Assembly (NCBI GenBank): GCA_963977015.1
Contig: CAXBMO010000018.1
Coordinates: forward strand, 32,001-96,000
DNA length: 64,000 nt
Direction of reading: 5' to 3'
Source: an uncultured bacterium
GTDB taxonomy: Bacteria > Verrucomicrobiota > Verrucomicrobiia > Verrucomicrobiales > DEV007
Shown here: in pieces, positions 8,717 through 30,893 of the stretch
Numbering within the stretch: position 1 is the first letter of the stretch
How the letters are laid out: each line of letters begins with the position of its first letter
Notes under the pieces: generated by a model
Told to the model about the DNA's origin: nothing
Database searches by the model: none
The model's input: only the letters and a program-made list of their open reading frames with translations
Program-made: the position numbers and the translations under genes

Positions 8717-9972
8717 CCGCGCGCCCCGGGCTGGCTTGTTCCGGCTGTTCAGGCCAACGCAACCGAATCACCCGACGATCCTGGCGGGCAAATCCCAACG
8801 GGATTTCGCATGAACAGCCCAGTGTTGCCGAAGGCTACGCTGGGATTACCGAGCCAGCACGAATCCAATCCTGAAGGGATTGCGGAAGGCTTCGGGCGTC
8901 CCTTCCGGGACGCATCCTGGCACCGTCTCTGATCCGGTGGTTGCGCTGCGCTTCACCGACCGGCTAGGTTCGGGATGAGCCTCCGGCTCTCTGCTTGACC
9001 CATCCGGCGAAGACGATGGATGGGAAAAGGACATGGTTGTCTCACGCTTTCAGCGCTCGCGAATGCGGGCATCTTGCCCCGGGGCTTTGCTCGCGTGGGC
9101 TCGCGCACCCCAGGCTGGCAGGTTCTGGCTTTCGGCCAGCTCTAGCCAGAGAACGAAACACCCAGCAGGAAGCCGGAAAAGAAATCGAAAACGTTGGCGA
9201 GGCCTGAAAGGCCGAAACACGCCAGCCCGGGGCACCGCCCCGGGTCAAAGATCCGCAAGAATCGAGCGCTGAAAGTGCAATACAATCGCTCTATGTCTCA
9301 CGCTTTCAGGGCTCGCTCGCGACTGCGGGCATCTTGACCCGGGGCTTTGCTCGCGTGGGCTCGCGCACCCCAGGCAGGCAGGTTCTGGCTTTCGGCCAGC
9401 TCTAGCCAGAGGGCGAAACACCCAGCAGGAAGCCGGAAAAGAAATCGAAAACGTTGGCGAGGCCTGAAAGGCCGAAACATGCCAGCCCGGGGCACCGCCG
9501 GGTCAAAGATCCGCAAGATTCGAGCGCTGAAAGTGCGAGACAATCGCTCTATGTCTCACGCTTTCAGCGCTCGCAACCACGGCCATCACCACCCGGGCTT
9601 TGCTCGCGTGGGCTCGCGCACCCCGGGCTGGCCTGTGATGACCTACAGGCCAACTCTCTGACTCGTGCTGTGAAGCGGACAGGATTGTCCGCACTCCTTG
9701 GCTGGCTCACTCCATCGCACCCCATCAGGCCACTGCGACCAAATCACCCGACGATCCTGGCGGGCAAAATCCCAACGGGATTTCGTACGAACAGCCCAGT
9801 GTTGCCGAAGGCTACGCTGGGTTTACCCGGGCAGCACGAATCCAATCCTGAAAGGATTGCGGAAAGCTTCGGGCATCCCTGCCGGGACGCATCCTGTCAC
9901 CGCGACTTTTCCGGTGGTTGCGCTGCGCTTCACCGACCGGCTAGGTTCGGGATGAGCCTCCGGCTCTCTGCT
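8717..9972. repeat. Cluster of REP/REPIN-like palindromic repeats: unit A twice (8749-8995, 9725-9972) around tandem ~257-bp unit B (starts 9038, 9294, partial 9552)
   Basis: Near-identical copies are visible by eye. Unit B ends are inverted (TGTCTCACGCTTTCAGCGCTCG / CGAGCGCTGAAAGTGCGAGACA). Many short hairpins occur (GGCCTGAAAGGCC, AATCCCAACGGGATT, GCGGACAGGATTGTCCGC). The cluster lies between convergent genes. Confidence 0.85.
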
Positions 9973-10024
9973 CGTTCCTTCCGTCTGCGGGGAAGCAGCC
10001 CAACCCTCGATCGGGGTTGCCAAT

Positions 10025-11488: not shown

Positions 11489-11632
11489 GAGGGCACAGAC
11501 GGCATGTTTGCGATCGCCCAGGTCAATCCCCAAGGTCGCTTTCCGATAGATGGTAGGTCGTGTCGTTTTCATCAGCAGAGAGTCTATCAACCTCGTCCAG
11601 CGACGTGGCGCTCTGCCTTCTCATCTAATCTT
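11489..11632 (-). mobile_element. Truncated IS1111-type (IS110 family) left end with the first transposase codons
   Basis: 144 bp identical, apart from one mismatch seen, to 16983-17126; includes the subterminal IR GCCTTCTCAT; inserted after GGCTAAC-AAG. Confidence 0.92.
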
Positions 11633-11639
11633 GTTAGCC
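11633..11639 (-). other. attC R'' box (GGCTAAC) of the distal cassette; rest of the site lost at the IS remnant
   Basis: Overlaps the TAA stop of 11634..12101 and complements the (GTT)AGCC core in front of that gene. Confidence 0.75.
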
Positions 11640-12101
11640 TTTTAGTCTTCCGCGCCACCGGTTGTCGAGCTCTTGCCGGAATGCGGGAGGATCTCGATGG
11701 CTCAGCCACCATACTACGGTTTCATAGCGCTTCTTCAATTCATCGGGTAGATCTTCACAAAGTCTGTTCTTCGCTGCGTTTTGGGTCGCTTCAATTCCTT
11801 CGACTTCCGCCAGATACCATGGAAGCTCCTCCACGCTCACATCCCACTTCGGGATCAGGCGCCCAAGGTCACTGCCGATGTCGCCATCATAAGGTGGCTT
11901 GAGGAGCCAGAGAATCCCTCCCGCTACTTCCTGAGCAGCGAATCGATTCGTGTGATCGTCTTCGAAGACGCTCAGCATCGCATCCCGCAAGGCATCACTA
12001 TCGCAATTGCGCAGTCGGCGAACGAGATGCTGAATCGCTTGCCATCCATTCGGCCGATCTAGGGACGCGTATAACTCAGCTTTGATTTCGTCCGCGTCCA
12101 T
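11634..12101 (-). CDS. Integron cassette gene, hypothetical protein (155 aa)
   Basis: Promoterless ORF starting 7 nt after the core remnant AGCC and ending in the R'' box; no family recognised. Confidence 0.8.
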   Translation of the reverse strand: MDADEIKAELYASLDRPNGWQAIQHLVRRLRNCDSDALRDAMLSVFEDDHTNRFAAQEVAGGILWLLKPPYDGDIGSDLGRLIPKWDVSVEELPWYLAEVEGIEATQNAAKNRLCEDLPDELKKRYETVVWWLSHRDPPAFRQELDNRWRGRLKG

Positions 12102-12112
12102 TTTCTGAGGCT

Positions 12113-12420
12113 ATCAAGGTAGGGACACCGGTTGCCCGGCGCCCCCCTCACAGATCCCGGTGTGCGGATTTCCCGCACCGGGCTCCTCGGAGAATCGCGC
12201 ACGTTCACGCTTGGTTCTGAAGTCCTGTTGGCTCCCCATCGGATGATAAGATGGCAGGATTGCGCTCATAAGGCAAGGCGGGGTTGATAGGCGGGGTCGA
12301 TTTCTTCCACCACCCTCGCGGGCGGCAGTCGCCACACCGTGGTCCACCGGGCTAGCAGCTTTTCCCAGGTAAAGCTCTTGCGCTGGCTGCACCGATTGAG
12401 CCATTTGAAGATCAATCCCT
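12113..12420 (-). mobile_element. 3' remnant of a group II intron (not class C): maturase C-terminus, domain V and domain VI
   Basis: LIFKWLNRCSQRKSFTWEK...LPPARV maturase tail (stop 12266); DV GAGCCCGGTGCGGGAAATCCGCACACCGGGATC (AGC triad, ~12153-12185); DVI ending CCCTACCTTGAT. Confidence 0.88.
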
Positions 12421-12421
12421 T

Positions 12422-12877
12422 GACCTCCAGCACGTCGGCCGGGGGAAGAGCGCGATCCGTTACCTCGCCGCCTACGCCACCCGCAGCGCGTTTTCCGCCC
12501 AACGCCTGCTGGGCTACGACCAGAGCGGCAACCGCCTGCTCCTACGCTGGATCTCCAGCGAAACGGGCAAAGTCGGCACCCTGCACCTGGCTCCGCACGA
12601 ACTCATCCGGCGCTGGCTCCTGCACGTTCTCCCCAAAGGGTTCACCCGGATCCGGCACTACGGCTTCCTCAGCAGCGCCGCGCGCAAGAAGCGGCTCAAG
12701 ATTCGGCTCCTGCTCGGAGAACTGCGGCCCGAACCGGAACCCGTCCTTCCCGAGCACGAGGTGCCGAACTGTCCACACTGCGGCGGCACGCTGATCCACT
12801 GGTTCGACTTGCCTCGGATTTATCCGGTGCGAGGACCACCGCCATCAACATCACCATCCTTCGCCGCATCATCATGA
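12422..12877 (+). pseudogene. IS91-family (Y2 rolling-circle) transposase, C-terminal fragment
   Basis: Frame not in the ORF track: DLQHVGRGKSAIRYLAAYATR...RRWLLHVLPKGFTRIRHYGFLS...CPHCGG...RGPP, stop TGA at 12875-12877; no start codon. Confidence 0.88.
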
Positions 12878-13174
12878 CAATCGGCGCCTACCCACAAAGC
12901 CAAGTCATCCTAACACCTGCCAAATCGGGATGTCTTGGGAACGTGCGGACTCGTCCCGCGAAAAACCCGCAACTCGTCATCGCTCCTGCCTCCGCTGGGG
13001 GCTCGGACGCCACCAAGGCGCTGCCTTTCGCGTTGCTGGTGACGAATCGGCGGAGCGATTCGTCACGCAGGCCTGTGCGCGTCACTTTGCAGGATCGCCC
13101 CAGTGTCGCGTGGTCCGTAAGTCGCTCACCCTCAGCCTGAAATCGAAACCGCAAAGGAGGCATGAGGGCCCGTT

Positions 13175-15072
13175 ATCGGGTAGGAGGAGGGGTTGCCCCC
13201 TCCGTCCTCCCACACCACCGGGCATACGGTTCCGTACCACGGCGGTTCACGAAGTGGACGCATAGAAGCGAACCGAATCCAACAATCTAACAAGTCCACG
13301 TAAATCAAAGAACTTTCGGGGCATCGCCTTATTCAGATGCGAGGCTCCGGCATTCCACCACGGGCCCCGACCATTGTAGGCAGAGGCTGAAGCGCGCGCT
13401 TCATCAACCCCCAAGCCCATCAGCTTGCGCCGACGGGTTTTGGGCTTCTTCCACTGTCGCCAGAGTACACCTCGCAGCCTGCGCCGCAGCCATCGGTCCA
13501 GTTCCTCCAATACGCCCTTCACCTCGGCGTGCCGAAAGTAGGAGGCCCAGCCACGCAGCAGCGGGTTGAGATCCTCCACAATGAACCGCTCCAAATTCCG
13601 GCCGCGTCCGTGCCGAAGCAGGGCTTTGACCTTCTGGCGCAAGCGCCGCAGCGATTCGTTCGACACCTTGAGTCGTGCTTGATAGTGCATCGTTAGGCTG
13701 TAGCCAAGGAACGAACGGTTCCAAGGCCGGTCTACCGCGCTCTTTTCGGCGTTGACCTTCAACTTCAGATGTTTTCCCAGCCAGATGGTCAGGTTTTCGA
13801 GCACGCGTTCGCCTGCTGTCCGGGATGAAACGTAAATGTTCACATCATCGGCGTAGCGGCAGAAGCGATGCCCGCGTTTCTCCAGATCTTTGTCCAACTC
13901 GTCGAGTAGGATATTGCTGAGCAGCGGCGAGAGCGGGCCGCCTTGTGGCGTTCCCTGACGGCGCGGCCGCACGAGGCCGCCGTCCATCATACCCGCTTGC
14001 AGGTAGCGGCGGATCAGTCGCAAGACCCGTTTGTCCTTCACTTTACGCATCACACGGGCCATGAGCACGTCGTGGTTGACGTTGTCGAAGAACTTTTCCA
14101 GGTCCATATCGACGACCCAGCGCCGCCCGCCTCGCACGTGCTCGCGCATGGCTTTCACCGCCTGATGGGCGCTGCGCCCGGGCCGAAAGCCATAGCTGGA
14201 GTCACTGAACGTGGGATCGAAGATCGGGCCCAACACTTGCGCAGTCGCCTGTTGAATCAGACGGTCGAGCACCGTGGGTATGCCCAGAGTTCGTTCCCCC
14301 TTTCCTCCCGGTTTGGGGATTTGCACCTTACGTACTGCGTTTGGCCGGTATGTTCCGGCCAGCAGTTGTTCTTTGATTTCGGGCCAATGGATTTTGAGGA
14401 AGGGGCGCATTTGCTCCCAGCTCATGCCATCGGCCCCGGCGGCCCCTTTGTTGCGTTCTACCGCGTGGAGGGCACGCCACATGTTCTCACGATCGACGAT
14501 TGCCGCCATCAGGTCGGCTTCTTTGGATGGGTTTCCATCTGGGTTGGCCGGAACGCTCGTTGACGCCCCACATTCCAACAGCCCTGGCGGATTCTGTCCG
14601 TTACCTCTGCCGGGTGGGTCAGGCATCTCAGCCTTCTGTTCTGCATCTGCTTCGTTCATCGACAACTTGGTTGGTTAACCATCACACTTCATGTTCGGGC
14701 CTTCAGCCGGGTCGATCTCCGGCCTACTATGCCCTCTGCTGACTTCTGGCGCGTCATCCCAGCACCTCTCAATGCTGGTAGCACATGGCAACACGCCAGA
14801 TCTCCCCGGGTAATGCGCATTCACCTCCGCACTTATCCCCGCCACATATACATCAACACCTTCTGTGCAAGTATGGGACTTCGAATGTGTTGGCCTTCTC
14901 ATCCGGTATTGATGCCTCATATGTGATTTCTGTTCGTCGGGGTAGTGTTTTGCCTACGGCTTCCTTCAGACTCCACCTCACGGTGGACGCCCTTGCCGCT
15001 CAGCTAGCGGTTCCCCTTGCCGGGTCCGCGGAGGACTTGAACCTCCAAGTGAATGCGCCCTGCCGGGCGCAC
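13175..15072 (-). mobile_element. Complete class C group II intron (~1.9 kb)
   Basis: 5' end GTGCGCCCGGCA at 15072; class C-type DV GAACCGCCGTGGTACGGAACCGTATGCCCGGTGG (CGC triad); 3' end CTCCTACCCGAT at 13175; inserted immediately after a stem-loop. Confidence 0.93.
13247..14665 (-). CDS. ltrA: Group II intron reverse transcriptase/maturase (no endonuclease domain)
   Basis: NKGAAGADG, RTLGIPTVLDR, YGFRPGRSAH, DLEKFFD, GTPQGGPLSPLLSNI, RYADD, LRGWASYF. Confidence 0.96.
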   Translation of the reverse strand: MSMNEADAEQKAEMPDPPGRGNGQNPPGLLECGASTSVPANPDGNPSKEADLMAAIVDRENMWRALHAVERNKGAAGADGMSWEQMRPFLKIHWPEIKEQLLAGTYRPNAVRKVQIPKPGGKGERTLGIPTVLDRLIQQATAQVLGPIFDPTFSDSSYGFRPGRSAHQAVKAMREHVRGGRRWVVDMDLEKFFDNVNHDVLMARVMRKVKDKRVLRLIRRYLQAGMMDGGLVRPRRQGTPQGGPLSPLLSNILLDELDKDLEKRGHRFCRYADDVNIYVSSRTAGERVLENLTIWLGKHLKLKVNAEKSAVDRPWNRSFLGYSLTMHYQARLKVSNESLRRLRQKVKALLRHGRGRNLERFIVEDLNPLLRGWASYFRHAEVKGVLEELDRWLRRRLRGVLWRQWKKPKTRRRKLMGLGVDEARASASAYNGRGPWWNAGASHLNKAMPRKFFDLRGLVRLLDSVRFYASTS

Positions 15073-15538: not shown

Positions 15539-15655
15539 GCCGAACGTCCGAGGTGTGGCAGCGGCTACTGAGAGCGCCACCTCGAAACAGGGTTGAGTGT
15601 TGAAGTAAAGAGGGTCATGCCGACTCGGGGCGTGTAGCCGCTTGTCCACCACCGC
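15539..15655 (-). other. attC site, distal part (R'' half GCAGAAC-AAG lies at 17133-17124, beyond the IS)
   Basis: Rejoined site is ~127 bp: GCAGAAC-AAGGC-GGTGGTGG...CCACACC-TCGGAC-GTTCGGC, with canonical 5/6-nt spacers, one extra base in L'' and an inner stem AGCGGCTAC/GTAGCCGCT. Confidence 0.85.
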
Positions 15656-15670
15656 CTTCCATGAGAAGGC

Positions 15671-15998
15671 CATCAAGTAGTAACATCAAAATTTCAATTT
15701 TGCTAGGGTTTGTTGTTGGGCTGGGTGGTGGTGGTTTCAGGGATGAAGGTTGAATCGCGCTTCCATTCGCACTCGTTTGGTAGAGCCACTGTTCGCTGGG
15801 CTTCGGTGCATGTTTGGATCCGGTTCATCTCTGTTCTATCACAAAGAAAAGGACGCTGCTATCTTGTTCCCGCATTCCTAACTCATAAGGTTTGATGCTG
15901 ACGCATGGACCGCAGTCGCCCCAAAGGTTGGTTGCTGGCGTTAGCTTCGCAGTCGTCCAGGAAAGGCGTTCTTGGCTTTTGAAAATTCATGTCGGTTT
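15671..15998 (-). ncRNA. Probable bridge/seek RNA region of the IS1111 element
   Basis: Non-coding end contains GAACAAG (15869-15863), matching the target flank, and ATGGAAG (15766-15760), matching the donor junction. Exact RNA ends cannot be determined. Confidence 0.7.
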
Positions 15999-17066
15999 TC
16001 AGGCGCTGGCTAACTTCATCGGCTCATACGCGGTATCGTTCTTCCAAATTGTCATCATCACCACCGCCAACTTCCGGGCGGTCGCGACCACGGCTTTCTT
16101 CTTCGCGCCACGACCGCCTCGTTGCGCTAGACGCAGGCCGCGGATTTGCAGATCGCACTCTTCGCCAAACGGTCCCAACAGATATTGGGCGCTACCGACG
16201 AGGAGGCGACGCAGATAAGCGTTCCCACATTTGCTAATCCGCAGGGACTTGTCGACCCCGCCGGATTGATCGCGCCGCGGCACCAAGCCGAGATAAGCTC
16301 CCCCATCGCGAGGGTGACGGAAACGTTGGGGATCGCCAATTGTGAGGATAAAGCAAAGCGCCGTGATCGGCCCAATCCCACGGATCTCGCGCAAGCGTTG
16401 GCTCTCCGGATAGCGTTCCTGACACAACCGCTCAATCTCGCGGTCCAGTTCCCGGATCTTTGCCGTCATCGTGTCGATCACTTGCAACGAGGGCTCGATC
16501 ATGGCTAACACCTCAGCCTCGTCCCCCTGCAGTAACATTTGAGCCCGACGGGCGAAGCAGGTCGTTTTGGGCGATGGCAGGCGAATTCCCAAACCTTTGA
16601 GTGTGAAGCGCACCGCTGAGATCACGTCCACGCGTTGGCGCACCAGATTGTCGCGCAGCTTGATCTGAAGAAGGTCGCGCTGGGCCTGCTCGCTACCGTG
16701 CACAATGGGATGCAACAGACTCGCATCCACCCGAGCCAGCTTCGCCAACATCCGCGCATCCAACTCATCGCTCTTGCGTTCGTTTTGGTAGATCGCACGC
16801 AGTTTACGTGAGTTCGCCACAATGACTTCGCATCCCAACTTGTCGAGTAGCCGACTGATCCACAGGCTATGACTTCCCACCTCCATAGCGATCCGTGCTT
16901 TGGGAAAGCGCTTCACCAACATCGCCAACCGTTCTCTGGTATTGGGGATCGTCATTTCCGCGACAATCTCGCCCTTCGCGTTGAGGGCACAGACGGCATG
17001 TTTGCGATCGCCCAGGTCAATCCCCAAGGTCGCTTTCCGATAGATGGTAGGTCGTGTCGTTTTCAT
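15999..17066 (-). CDS. IS110-family DEDD transposase/recombinase
   Basis: GIDLGD, MEVG, KSDELDA, RGIGPITA, YLGLVPRRDQSGG (catalytic Ser), ISKCGNAYLRRLL, ARKLAV. Confidence 0.96.
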   Translation of the reverse strand: MKTTRPTIYRKATLGIDLGDRKHAVCALNAKGEIVAEMTIPNTRERLAMLVKRFPKARIAMEVGSHSLWISRLLDKLGCEVIVANSRKLRAIYQNERKSDELDARMLAKLARVDASLLHPIVHGSEQAQRDLLQIKLRDNLVRQRVDVISAVRFTLKGLGIRLPSPKTTCFARRAQMLLQGDEAEVLAMIEPSLQVIDTMTAKIRELDREIERLCQERYPESQRLREIRGIGPITALCFILTIGDPQRFRHPRDGGAYLGLVPRRDQSGGVDKSLRISKCGNAYLRRLLVGSAQYLLGPFGEECDLQIRGLRLAQRGGRGAKKKAVVATARKLAVVMMTIWKNDTAYEPMKLASA

Positions 17067-17118
17067 CAGCAGAGAGTCTATCAACCTCGTCCAGCGACGA
17101 GGCGCTCTGCCTTCTCAT

Positions 17119-17724
17119 CTAATCTTGTTCTGCTTCTTTGGCTGTTATCGAATTACGTATGGCTGCCTTGAAGTGATCCAGCTTGCTGCCATTCCAGCTA
17201 AAGTCCCAATCTTCTGGGTCAAACTTCTGATTTAGCATTTTACCTAGTTCTTCATTATCTAGGCTTGCTGCCCAACGATTCTGCTCCTTCACGCACAGAG
17301 CCTCGATGCGAAGACGCTTATCTTCATCGTAGCGAATTCCTCGGCATTCAAGATACGCATGTGTCGCCTCATGGACTAGTAAGGCAGCATGAAAAGCGAT
17401 AGAAAACTCGACATCCCGTTCAGGCCAAGACTCTTCAAAGTTAATCGCGCAAGCATGCGCCCAGTGCCAATATTCAGCACCCGGCGTAGAAAGGCTCGTG
17501 TTCACGATCCAATCCAAATTCTTAGTTACGCGAGAAAACCTACGCGAATCTGTGTCCTTGAGAAGATTCAGTGAGGCTAGAATCGTGGTGTGAAAATCCA
17601 CACTTCTTCTCCTAACGTCCACAATCCGAATCGAATAGACCTCCTCGACTGTCATTGATGACCACAATCGGAGGGTGAGCTTGCGAGATACTATGCCGAT
17701 ACAGCGCCGTATGCTTCCGATCAT
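17119..17724 (-). CDS. First integron cassette gene; hypothetical protein with an HExxH motif
   Basis: AT-richer ORF bounded by GTTCTGC (17740-17734) and GCAGAAC (17133-17127); LLVHEATH; current stop is supplied by the IS end. Confidence 0.8.
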   Translation of the reverse strand: MIGSIRRCIGIVSRKLTLRLWSSMTVEEVYSIRIVDVRRRSVDFHTTILASLNLLKDTDSRRFSRVTKNLDWIVNTSLSTPGAEYWHWAHACAINFEESWPERDVEFSIAFHAALLVHEATHAYLECRGIRYDEDKRLRIEALCVKEQNRWAASLDNEELGKMLNQKFDPEDWDFSWNGSKLDHFKAAIRNSITAKEAEQD

Positions 17725-29405: not shown

Positions 29406-30893
29406 ATGAAGTCTAAATTCGCCCTACCTGTCCCCCCTCGATCGCTCAACGAGAAAGTCGCTCAGCCGAAATCTCGCTACGCCCATGAACTTTCCGGTCA
29501 GGGAAAGACTTCTTCCGCTCCGGTGGCCAAACCATCCGGGCTCTTGATGAACACACCCCGGAGCGCGCAGGGTGCCCGGAAGAGCGCATTTCTTTCCGCC
29601 CGCGACAGCGAGGCAACTCCGCAGCCAGTAGTCGCAGCGGCTCCAGCAAAACCAGCGGTTCCAACACCAGCACCCGCGAAGCCGACGGCGACTCCAGCCG
29701 TTCCAACGCCCGGACCCGCGATACCGGCGGCGACTCCATCTGTTCCAACGCCCGGACCCGCGAAACCAGCGGCGTCTCCAGCCGTTCCAACGCCTGCGCC
29801 CGCGAAACCGGCGGCGACTCCATCTGTTCCAACGCCCGGCCCAGCAAAACCGGCGGCGTCTCCTACGGTTCCAACGCCGGAACCCGCGAAACCAGCAGCA
29901 TCTCCAGCCGCTCCAACTCCGGAACCCGCGAAACCAGCAGCGTCTCCAACCGTTCCAACGCCGGCCCCCGCGAAACCAGCAGCGTCTCCAGCCGTTCCAA
30001 CGCCGGAGCCCGCGAAACCAGCGGCGACTCCAACCGTTCCAACGCCCGAGCCCGCAAAACCAGCTGCGTCTCCAGCCGTTCCAACGCCGGAGCCCACAAA
30101 ACCAGCGGCGACTCCAACGGTTCCAACACCCGGCCCCGCAAAACCAGCTGCGTCTCCAGCCGTTCCAACGCCCGAGCCCGCAAAACCAGCTGCGTCCCCA
30201 GCCGTTCCAACGCCCGAGCCCGCAAAACCAGCAGCGTCTCCAACGGTCCCAACGCCGGAACCGGCAAAACCAGCGGCGTCTCCAGCCGTTCCAACTCCGG
30301 AACCCGCGAAACCAGTTGCGTCTCCAGCCGTCCCAACGCCGGAACCCGCGAAACCAGCGGCGACTCCAGCCGTTCCAACGCCGGAACCCGCGAAACCAGC
30401 TGCGTCTCCAGCCGTTCCAACTCCGGAACCCGCGAAACCAGCAGCGACTCCAGCCGTTCCAACGCCGGAACCCGCGAAACCAGCAGCTTCTCCAACCGTT
30501 CCAACGCCGGAACCCGCGAAACCAGCAGCGACTCCAACGGTTCCAACTCCGGAACCCGCGAAACCAGCGGCGTCTCCAGCCGTTCCAACGCCGGAACCGG
30601 CAAAATCCGCTCCCCAACCTGCGCCCGCCTCTCCTCCGCCAAGCGAGAAGGTCGCTGCGGTTGCCGCCAAGCGGAGCATTCCAGCCGAAGCTCAAGGCGC
30701 CGCCGCCGCCGCGAAAAAGGCGGCAAGCAATGAGCCGAGCGATACTCGACCACGCTGGATCCTCATGATTCTCTTTCTGGTCGCTTTTATTGCCTTTGCC
30801 GTGCTGGTGGTGCTTCCCCGGATTAACTCCTCGTCAGCCGAAGACAGCGGCGCTCAGGGAGAGACAGAGACTCCCGCCGCCACGACCGAATAG
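29406..30893 (+). CDS. Pro/Ala-rich repeat protein with a C-terminal TM helix
   Basis: 22 tandem PAKPAA(S/T)P(A/T)VPTP(E/G/A) units, then WILMILFLVAFIAFAVLVVL; repeat variation is largely at third codon positions in this frame. Confidence 0.82.
   Translation: MKSKFALPVPPRSLNEKVAQPKSRYAHELSGQGKTSSAPVAKPSGLLMNTPRSAQGARKSAFLSARDSEATPQPVVAAAPAKPAVPTPAPAKPTATPAVPTPGPAIPAATPSVPTPGPAKPAASPAVPTPAPAKPAATPSVPTPGPAKPAASPTVPTPEPAKPAASPAAPTPEPAKPAASPTVPTPAPAKPAASPAVPTPEPAKPAATPTVPTPEPAKPAASPAVPTPEPTKPAATPTVPTPGPAKPAASPAVPTPEPAKPAASPAVPTPEPAKPAASPTVPTPEPAKPAASPAVPTPEPAKPVASPAVPTPEPAKPAATPAVPTPEPAKPAASPAVPTPEPAKPAATPAVPTPEPAKPAASPTVPTPEPAKPAATPTVPTPEPAKPAASPAVPTPEPAKSAPQPAPASPPPSEKVAAVAAKRSIPAEAQGAAAAAKKAASNEPSDTRPRWILMILFLVAFIAFAVLVVLPRINSSSAEDSGAQGETETPAATTE
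29673..30596 (+). repeat. Coding tandem repeat, 22 x 42 bp
   Basis: Unit approximately CCCGCGAAACCAGCGGCGTCTCCAGCCGTTCCAACGCCGGAA. Confidence 0.95.

Follow-up and report, generated by a model that had tools for sequence, protein, structure and literature searches.

We analysed a 64,000-nucleotide stretch of DNA from an uncultured bacterium of the Verrucomicrobiota (Verrucomicrobiales; DEV007; GenBank assembly GCA_963977015.1, contig CAXBMO010000018.1, positions 32,001 to 96,000), hereafter the window, and found that it very probably carries an intact insertion sequence of the IS1111 group (IS110 family) that sits in an attC-like site and combines a recombinase with a two-loop guide RNA lying 3′ of the gene. 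The protein family, the element ends, the RNA helices and the covariation of guides with flanking DNA were each established by comparison with relatives. The DEDD/serine recombinase would work with a non-coding RNA (a seekRNA or bridge RNA) encoded between its stop codon and the right end of the element. In that RNA, the 3′ side of the target loop would serve as the left-target guide, GAACAAG, and the 5′ side of the donor loop would be partly complementary to the start of the left end. The element is read on the minus strand, with a left junction of GCAGAAC-AAG/ATTAG (17133..17119) and a right junction of CTCATGG-AAG/GCGG (15665..15652); it runs from ATTAG... at 17123 to ...CTCATGGAAG at 15656. 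An initial annotation of the sequence had singled out the target GCAGAAC-AAG-GCGG, the predicted circle junction CTCATGG-AAG-ATTAG and the 7-mers GAACAAG and ATGGAAG, the letters of which were all confirmed at their stated places (Table 1).

Approximately 100 related loci from Verrucomicrobiota genomes and metagenomes, encoding proteins with 51-74% identity to the window transposase, were compared. Species-representative genomes contributed 16 loci, all from Verrucomicrobiota apart from one distant match, and the metagenome relatives were the best 80 of 243 detected. The right end and ATGGAAG were located in 107 loci, and both flanks were recovered for 90 de-duplicated insertion events. Matches at E <=1e-60 were present in 22/401 genomes of the same order, and 8/134 genomes of the same family had a DNA match. 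Among 72,556 plasmid records, the best transposase identity by tblastn was <=37%, and a DNA search of plasmids returned three short 3-7% matches only.

Comparison of the left-target guide with the left flank of each insertion revealed agreement at positions -3 to -7 in 84, 85, 86, 87 and 66 of 91 events, respectively, and at position -8 in 8/91. Because agreement is lost at -8, the left-target guide corresponds exactly to the 7-mer proposed earlier, that is, five bases plus AG. Where the guide departed from the family majority, the flank followed it in 49/53, 12/16, 12/16, 15/17 and 31/38 events (-3 to -7), so that the assignment of GAACAAG as a guide for the target left flank plus core is upheld by covariation at all five non-core positions. 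At least 7 contiguous bases were shared between the 3′ loop side and the left flank in 59/90 events, compared with 14.3% of mismatched pairings. When the 328-nt non-coding stretch was shuffled 20,000 times by mononucleotides, the two 7-mers turned up jointly in 0.075% of the shuffles. ATGGAAG, on the 3′ side of the second loop, was found in 91/91 events, and the right end read ..GGAAG in 86/91; the proposal that ATGGAAG is the left-donor guide plus core is consistent with these counts, although the motif is invariant.

The initial annotation had further suggested a 3-nt AAG core, which was not supported by the relatives. Left flanks ended in CAG (38), AAG (35), GAG (12) or TAG (6), with the guide following, whereas the right end read AAG in 86/91 events. 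Since the base before AG varies in targets and is constant in the right end, the core common to donor and target is, as read from these alignments, AG, and the AAG repeat in the window is a coincidence of its own guide.

The structure of the guide RNA was similarly evident across relatives. RNAalifold, given 46 distinct RNAs, predicted the outer and inner helices of the first loop and the inner helix of the second (20 pairs, 14 of them compensatory), to which we added by hand a 5-pair outer helix of the second loop, yielding 25 pairs. In the 46 related RNAs, 93.3% of cells in these helices were paired, versus 27-40% when partners were slid by 1-3 columns. Changes on both sides were seen at 15/25 pairs, with a covariation score matched by 0/500 shuffles; in helix 1, 9/10 pairs had changed on both sides and 95.9% of cells were paired. 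A two-loop guide RNA in the 3′ non-coding region, as initially proposed, is thus borne out by helices that pair and covary across relatives. Folding of the window sequence on its own, which had been put forward as a check, gave a divided answer: the minimum-free-energy fold did set GAACAAG between the outer and inner helices, but its stability was no better than that of shuffled sequences (z -0.60). A single-sequence fold proves nothing by itself, and support for the structure therefore comes from covariation. The family covariance model matched the window once and the whole genome once, at the same locus, and Rfam held no family for the guide RNA either at the gathering threshold or at E up to 10, returning snoRNA-like noise only. 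By analogy with published relatives, the RNA would be produced and bound by the recombinase.

The right-target and right-donor guides appear to lie on the 5′ sides of the two loops, 5′ of each inner stem. In the target loop, the 5′ side complements the core G and right flank on their top strand: at least 7 contiguous complementary bases to the right flank were present in 40/90 true pairs versus 2.7% of mismatched ones, and at least 8 in 29/90 versus 1.3%. Resolved by position, pairing involved the core G in 77/89 cases, +1 in 32/89, positions +2 to +8 in 71, 65, 61, 55, 61, 49 and 49 of 89, and +9 in 15/89. Retargeted relatives matched their sites on both sides, with 11 contiguous bases for the right guide in L046 and L064, 9 in L025/26 and 8-9 in L010/L068. 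The last of these have a non-attC target, and non-attC sequence matching the guide on both sides was likewise found at elements whose guides are unusual. On the 5′ side of the donor loop, complementarity to the start of the left end was partial. Over 40 distinct combinations, Watson-Crick pairs were counted at the core G in 39, at +1 in 18, at +2 in 33, at +3 in 30, at +4 in 17, at +5 in 33, at +6 in 24 and at +7 in 35, and two or three pair types at +2, +3 and +5 point to some covariation of this guide with the left end. The 3′ tail past the donor loop (..CCTTCATCC) was considered as a right-donor guide and rejected, as the stretch is not conserved across clades. According to Siddiquee et al. 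2024 (PMC11187229), IS1111 seekRNAs carry the complement of the top strand first, with that of the bottom strand 3′ of it. The guide order of the window element would be this published IS1111 order, the reverse of that in IS621.

The left-target guide continues beyond the core for two nucleotides (AT, AA or TA), which equalled positions +1/+2 of the left end in 39/40 distinct combinations. The exception, L111/L130, has extension AA and left end AT; its RNA is like the RNAs of the AA-type clade, its left end belongs to the AT type, and it may be a recombinant between clades. As the extension equals the left-end bases, the left-target guide fits the left junction as it reads after recombination, not the empty target. 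In IS621, 2-nt ‘handshake guides’ pair with the other DNA after top-strand exchange (PMC11208158) and tune insertion and excision (PMC11208158; PMC13626964). Here the extension is carried by the guide for the bottom strand, and we infer by analogy that it may act as a mirrored handshake relative to IS621. A similar extension on the left-donor guide was sought and rejected, because in our own reading the bases past ATGGAAG (C, then A/G/C) do not follow the flank. The junction-matching 2-nt extension looks new.

In the clade of the window element, the 5′ half of the target loop is present in two or three tandem copies with a period of ~36 nt. Each module consists of a helix strand, G, a 10-11-nt guide and GCA. 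Such modules were found in 11 distinct elements (the window element, L006, L007, L023, L105, L107, L109, L108, L122, L139 and L143); parsing by script missed one module each in L108, L122 and L139. Constrained folds of the window RNA gave -33.3 kcal/mol with the distal module paired and -29.6 kcal/mol with the proximal one, and the covariance model takes the proximal copy. A full-text search of the main articles found no description of repeated or alternative target loops in IS1111 RNAs, and the tandem right-guide modules look new.

The element itself has the features of the IS1111 group. Members of that group have subterminal inverted repeats measuring 7-17 bp, beyond which the termini extend a short way. 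In the window element the repeats are 10 bp long, ATGAGAAGGC matching the reverse complement of GCCTTCTCAT, with extensions of ATTAG on one side and GG plus core on the other. The transposase matched DEDD_Tnp_IS110 (Pfam PF01548; 80.3 bits, 1.7e-22), Transposase_20 (PF02371; 77 bits, 1.5e-21) and the NCBIfam model NF033542, ‘IS110 family RNA-guided transposase’ (230 bits; cut-off 140). In an alignment with six relatives, from which L016 was omitted because its frame has 2 stops, residues D23, E68, D106 and D109 were invariant, as was a GL.P....SG motif (G266, L267, P269, S274, G275). GL-P----S(T)G is the C-terminal motif of IS1111 transposases, and subterminal inverted repeats with a non-coding region 3′ of the gene are hallmarks of the group (Siddiquee et al. 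2024, PMC11187229). From the stop codon (16001-15999) to the right end there are 343 nt of non-coding DNA, versus 57 nt upstream of the ATG. Every IS1111-group feature open to testing in the sequence fits the element, and the intact DEDD/serine transposase, its catalytic residues and both ends substantiate the earlier description of an intact IS1111 element. As in published relatives, the element would pass through a circular intermediate, here joined at AG, and would duplicate no target bases beyond the core; at its junctions, the repeated AAG/AG was seen. A promoter scan found no sigma-70-like site in the linear element. The circle form would put TTGATG of the right end 17 bp from TAGATG (17121-17116) of the left end, a weak promoter match, and a junction promoter is putative, by analogy alone.

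Integron attC sites are laid out as an RYYYAAC-like box, arms and then a GTTRRRY-like box. The right flank of the element continues GCGGTGGTGG... and reaches GTTCGGC ~115 nt on, and when the two target halves were rejoined they formed one long imperfect hairpin with the two boxes paired (bottom strand, -52.3 kcal/mol). Genes around the element are small and cassette-like, and their families were not recognised. An integron integrase is encoded on another contig of the genome (291 bits; cut-off 265), and 0/14 control genomes scored over the cut-off. BLAST detected only two attC-like sites related to the target in the genome, on C36 and C30. Together, the boxes, the hairpin, the small genes, the integrase and a neighbouring intron provide good but not formal support for an attC-like target. 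The insertion in an attC site that had been read from the sequence accordingly stands in this form, as attC-like, on the strength of its boxes, rejoined hairpin and cassette-like context. The element would have inserted between the R″-like box and the next arm, 3 nt past AAC.

Three alternative explanations concern the element as a whole. In the initial annotation, each 7-mer and the CCTT found 10 nt on were taken as the two sides of a loop, with the left guide 5′ and the right guide 3′ as in IS621, around an AAG core. We regard this exact model as highly improbable. Its letters and spacing are present in the window, where CCTT (15852-15849 and 15749-15746) follows each 7-mer by exactly 10 nt and is complementary to AAGG of the target, but the spacing was kept in only 3/85 (target) and 1/85 (donor) distinct RNAs. 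Because it is not conserved among the 85 RNAs, the spacing is attributable to chance; five CCTT occur in the 328-nt stretch. Moreover, the first CCTT shares bases with the covarying outer helix (its 3′ strand) and the second lies outside the donor loop, right guides were found on the 5′ loop sides, and the base before AG varies in targets and not in the right end. It is just as hard to credit that the protein reads a folded attC hairpin when choosing targets and that the RNA matches are by-products. Most targets are indeed attC-like hairpins with a common AAC, but L010, L017, L061, L068, L024-26, L046 and L064 sit in unrelated non-attC sequence that matches their guides on both sides, and RNA-programmed targeting has been shown experimentally in IS1111 elements (PMC11187229). 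The third alternative, that the element is a silent relic in this host, intact in sequence, no longer moving and with guides unmatched to the available sites, is unlikely but carries more weight. It is favoured by the presence of one full copy (that in the window) next to three truncated 5′ fragments, by the poor fit of the right flank to both right guides and by the lack of exact cognate sites, as a search of the genome with either right guide gave 0 hits at 0 mismatches (the 134 and 129 hits at 3 mismatches being noise only). Several points speak against a relic: the reading frame, the catalytic residues, the two ends and every helix are intact; a marine metagenome contig (L022) has an identical copy that shares the right flank; and C30 offers an empty GAACAAG site. 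Nevertheless, a number of observations count against an active, RNA-guided element with two working loops. A single full copy accompanied by fragments leaves activity in the host unproven. The right flank in the window has longest complements of only 4 and 5 to the candidate guides, the latter out of register, and its right-donor guide pairs at only 6/8 positions by hand count; in one related genome, the four right flanks of one element mostly fit the guides poorly, only one of them matching a guide, over 6 contiguous bases in our own reading. ATGGAAG and the right end never vary and so pair without covariation, the outer helix of the donor loop is weak (81.3% paired, both-side change in 1/5 pairs), and single-sequence folds were no stabler than shuffles (z -0.60, -0.91). 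Finally, an 82-nt short seekRNA sufficed for the movement of ISEc11 (PMC11187229), and hence the donor loop may not be essential in IS1111 elements.

A further question is whether the tandem modules have a function. Modules on one RNA may represent alternative right guides; for the use of both copies, the evidence goes no further than suggestion. The RNA could refold to present different right guides, enabling one element to read the variable arms of several attC families, and the conserved AAC box would be read by the single left guide whichever right guide is shown. That an array of two or three units sharing one 3′ strand and one left guide forms a natural multi-specific bridge RNA, in a family with a handshake-like extension, is a tentative proposal to which we give somewhat less than an even chance. 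The second module could equally be a neutral duplication without a role, with one copy alone pairing in the working RNA, an explanation whose chances we judge to be about even. Only 2/8 parsed multi-module elements occupy sites with at least 8 contiguous matches to one module (the rest have 3-6), the window site does not discriminate between its modules (4 versus 5), and the guides of L023 differ at just 2 positions, as after a recent duplication. On the other hand, modules recur in 11 elements at a constant ~36-nt period, and their parsed helix strands pair at 8-10 of 10 positions with the single 3′ strand. The helix changes of L023 and L105 are common to the two copies and the 3′ strand, and guide parts diverge between copies while flanking parts stay the same. 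The site of L007 fits its distal module (8 contiguous versus 4) and that of L006 its proximal module (8 versus 2), at a length reached by 1.3% of mismatched pairs.

Table 1. Features of the IS1111-type element, its guide RNA and its target site, in window coordinates.
Feature	Position	Strand	Details
Whole IS1111-type element	15656..17123	-	1,468 bp with one AG core copy; ends common to relatives
AAG at both junctions	17126-17124 and 15658-15656	-	Read directly
Left end	17109..17123	-	Terminal extension ATTAG 17123-17119 (5 nt) and subterminal inverted repeat ATGAGAAGGC 17118-17109; kept in relatives
Right end	15656..15676	-	-35-like TTGATG 15676-15671; subterminal inverted repeat GCCTTCTCAT 15670-15661; GG + AAG 15660-15656
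Transposase gene	15999..17066	-	355 aa from likely start ATG 17066; open frame from TTG 17084 is 361 aa
Guide RNA extent	15748..15926	-	As matched by the family covariance model; spans the target loop (proximal module), linker and donor loop; 112.8 bits, E ~1e-29
Distal module	15937..15958	-	GGACGaCTGC 15958-15949, G, candidate right-target guide 1 AAGCTAACGCC 15947-15937; 9/10 pairs with 3′ strand
Proximal module	15900..15921	-	GGGCGaCTGC 15921-15912, G, candidate right-target guide 2 GTCCATGCGTC 15910-15900; 10/10 pairs with 3′ strand
Left-target guide and extension	15861..15869	-	GAACAAG 15869-15863; AT 15862-15861, the first two left-end bases
Target-loop outer helix, 3′ strand	15851..15859	-	GCAGCGTCC; partly holds first CCTT (15852-15849)
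Donor loop	15752..15821	-	GGATC 15821-15817; right-donor guide region ~15819-15812; left-donor guide ATGGAAG 15766-15760; GATTC 15756-15752
Donor-loop inner helix	15810-15805 and 15774-15768	-	TGCACC 15810-15805 with GAGTGCG 15774-15768; 99.6% paired; 2 pairs changed on both sides
Target left half	17124..17133	-	R″-like box GCAGAAC 17133-17127 plus AAG; guide-matched stretch GAACAAG 17130-17124
Target right part (interrupted attC-like site)	15539..15655	-	Ends in R′-like box GTTCGGC 15545-15539

The three 5′ fragments all keep the left junction. One, of 147 nt, lies in the window at 11489-11635 (GGCTAACAAG); a second, of 161 nt, is at C19:70873-71033 (AGCGAACAAG) and is followed by short tandem repeats; the third, of 360 nt at C36:40089-40448 (ACCGAACAAG), has degenerated (96% identity) and adjoins a group II intron in its 3′ part. 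Left junctions in the genome read GAACAAG in 3/4 cases and TAACAAG in one. A remnant at L150, in a related genome (~1420-1550), has a left flank, ..GAGAACAAG, joined straight to the last ~110 nt of an element, starting AGTGCGAATGGAAG; at this place a full element reads ..GAAG/AGTGCG... Its form suggests a deletion that joined the left junction to an internal AAG, possibly the work of the recombinase itself. A small hairpin at 15680-15700 (minus strand), 10-20 nt before the right-end repeat, is conserved in position among relatives. Its sequence is AAAATT-GA-AATTTT in the clade of the window and GAAAT-GA-ATTTC in the main clade, both arms changing jointly, and could be an RNA 3′ end or a protein site.

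At C30:31014-31140 (minus strand; ..ATCGAACAAG/ACGCGGCTGAGC...) lies an empty attC-like site that resembles the target in type. Its match to the left-target guide is perfect, and five of its bases (core G + ACGC) fit the proximal right guide. A complete group II intron (window 12100-14990, minus strand), 700 bp away from the element, occupies the next attC-like cassette site downstream, in the orientation of the cassette genes. The intron encodes a reverse transcriptase/maturase at 13247-14665 (TIGR04416, 419 bits) and has Rfam group-II domains at 14816-14987, 14698-14781 and 12113-12187; its 5′ GTGCG comes after ..CGGTTGTTG. Two further repeats were noted elsewhere in the window. At 29526-30749, at least 23 tandem copies of a 42-nt unit (60-85% alike) lie within a long open frame (29406-30893); in the protein this would give a repeat of 14 residues. 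A repeat block at 8749-9983, which has a DUF1552 gene on one side and a cytochrome c gene on the other, has a period of ~258-260 nt. Its three copies are 95-98% alike, and a pair of 217-nt repeats is spaced 977 nt apart.

Earlier references on attC-targeting IS1111 elements reportedly include Post & Hall 2009 and Tetu & Holmes 2008. The window element shares with three such elements a DEDD transposase, subterminal inverted repeats, a 3′ non-coding region and a target at one end of an attC site (here attC-like), and its RNA likewise has the top-strand-complement segment 5′ of the bottom-strand-complement segment. These three, ISKpn4, ISPst6 and ISPa25, are published as seekRNA-guided, attC-targeting IS1111 elements (PMC11187229). 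The window protein appears distant, with <=37% identity to any of the 72,556 plasmid records searched. Published attC target strings are CGGCTTGAA*CGAATTGTTAG and similar, cut at AA*CG ~10 nt 5′ of the GTTAG box (review, PMC13604230), whereas the window family cuts 3 nt 3′ of the AAC (AAC-NAG) of the box after the cassette gene. Hosts also differ, being environmental Verrucomicrobiota for the window family and Proteobacteria for ISKpn4, ISPst6 and ISPa25. As attC-targeting IS1111 elements with seekRNAs are already published, the window element appears to represent a new, distant lineage, which inserts elsewhere in attC.

That an IS1111 seekRNA can be redirected in nature is known from ISEc11 and ISXne4 (PMC11187229), in which, as in the window family, helices are kept and guide letters change together with the flanks; that is one pair, whereas the window family comprises dozens of guide/target classes. 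The bridge RNA of IS621 (Durrant et al. 2024, PMC11208160; Hiraizumi et al. 2024, PMC11208158) resembles the window RNA in reading both strands through two internal loops, in its 2-nt core and, putatively, in short extra handshake bases that bind the other DNA once strands have been exchanged. It differs in that the window RNA is 3′ rather than 5′ of the gene, the guide order in each loop is reversed and the core is AG rather than CT. The extension in the window is on the left-target guide and matches the donor right side, whereas the handshake guides of IS621 come after the right guides. Group IIC-attC introns (PMC3001079) also home to attC, and one occupies the same small cassette array, but they are retroelements with a ribozyme and a reverse transcriptase and their mechanism is unrelated.

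The basic finding of a 3′ guide RNA aimed at attC has been ordinary for the field since 2024. New here are a large, previously uncharted Verrucomicrobiota lineage and natural retargeting that is readable letter by letter. The lineage yields guide lengths for both sides (five bases plus AG on the left; core G plus ~8 on the right, with +1 mostly unpaired) as well as the AG core. If the modules alternate, the window element and its clade would offer an example of natural bridge RNA multiplexing, which could help in designing recombinase guides for several targets and could account for the spread of these elements through diverse integron cassette arrays.

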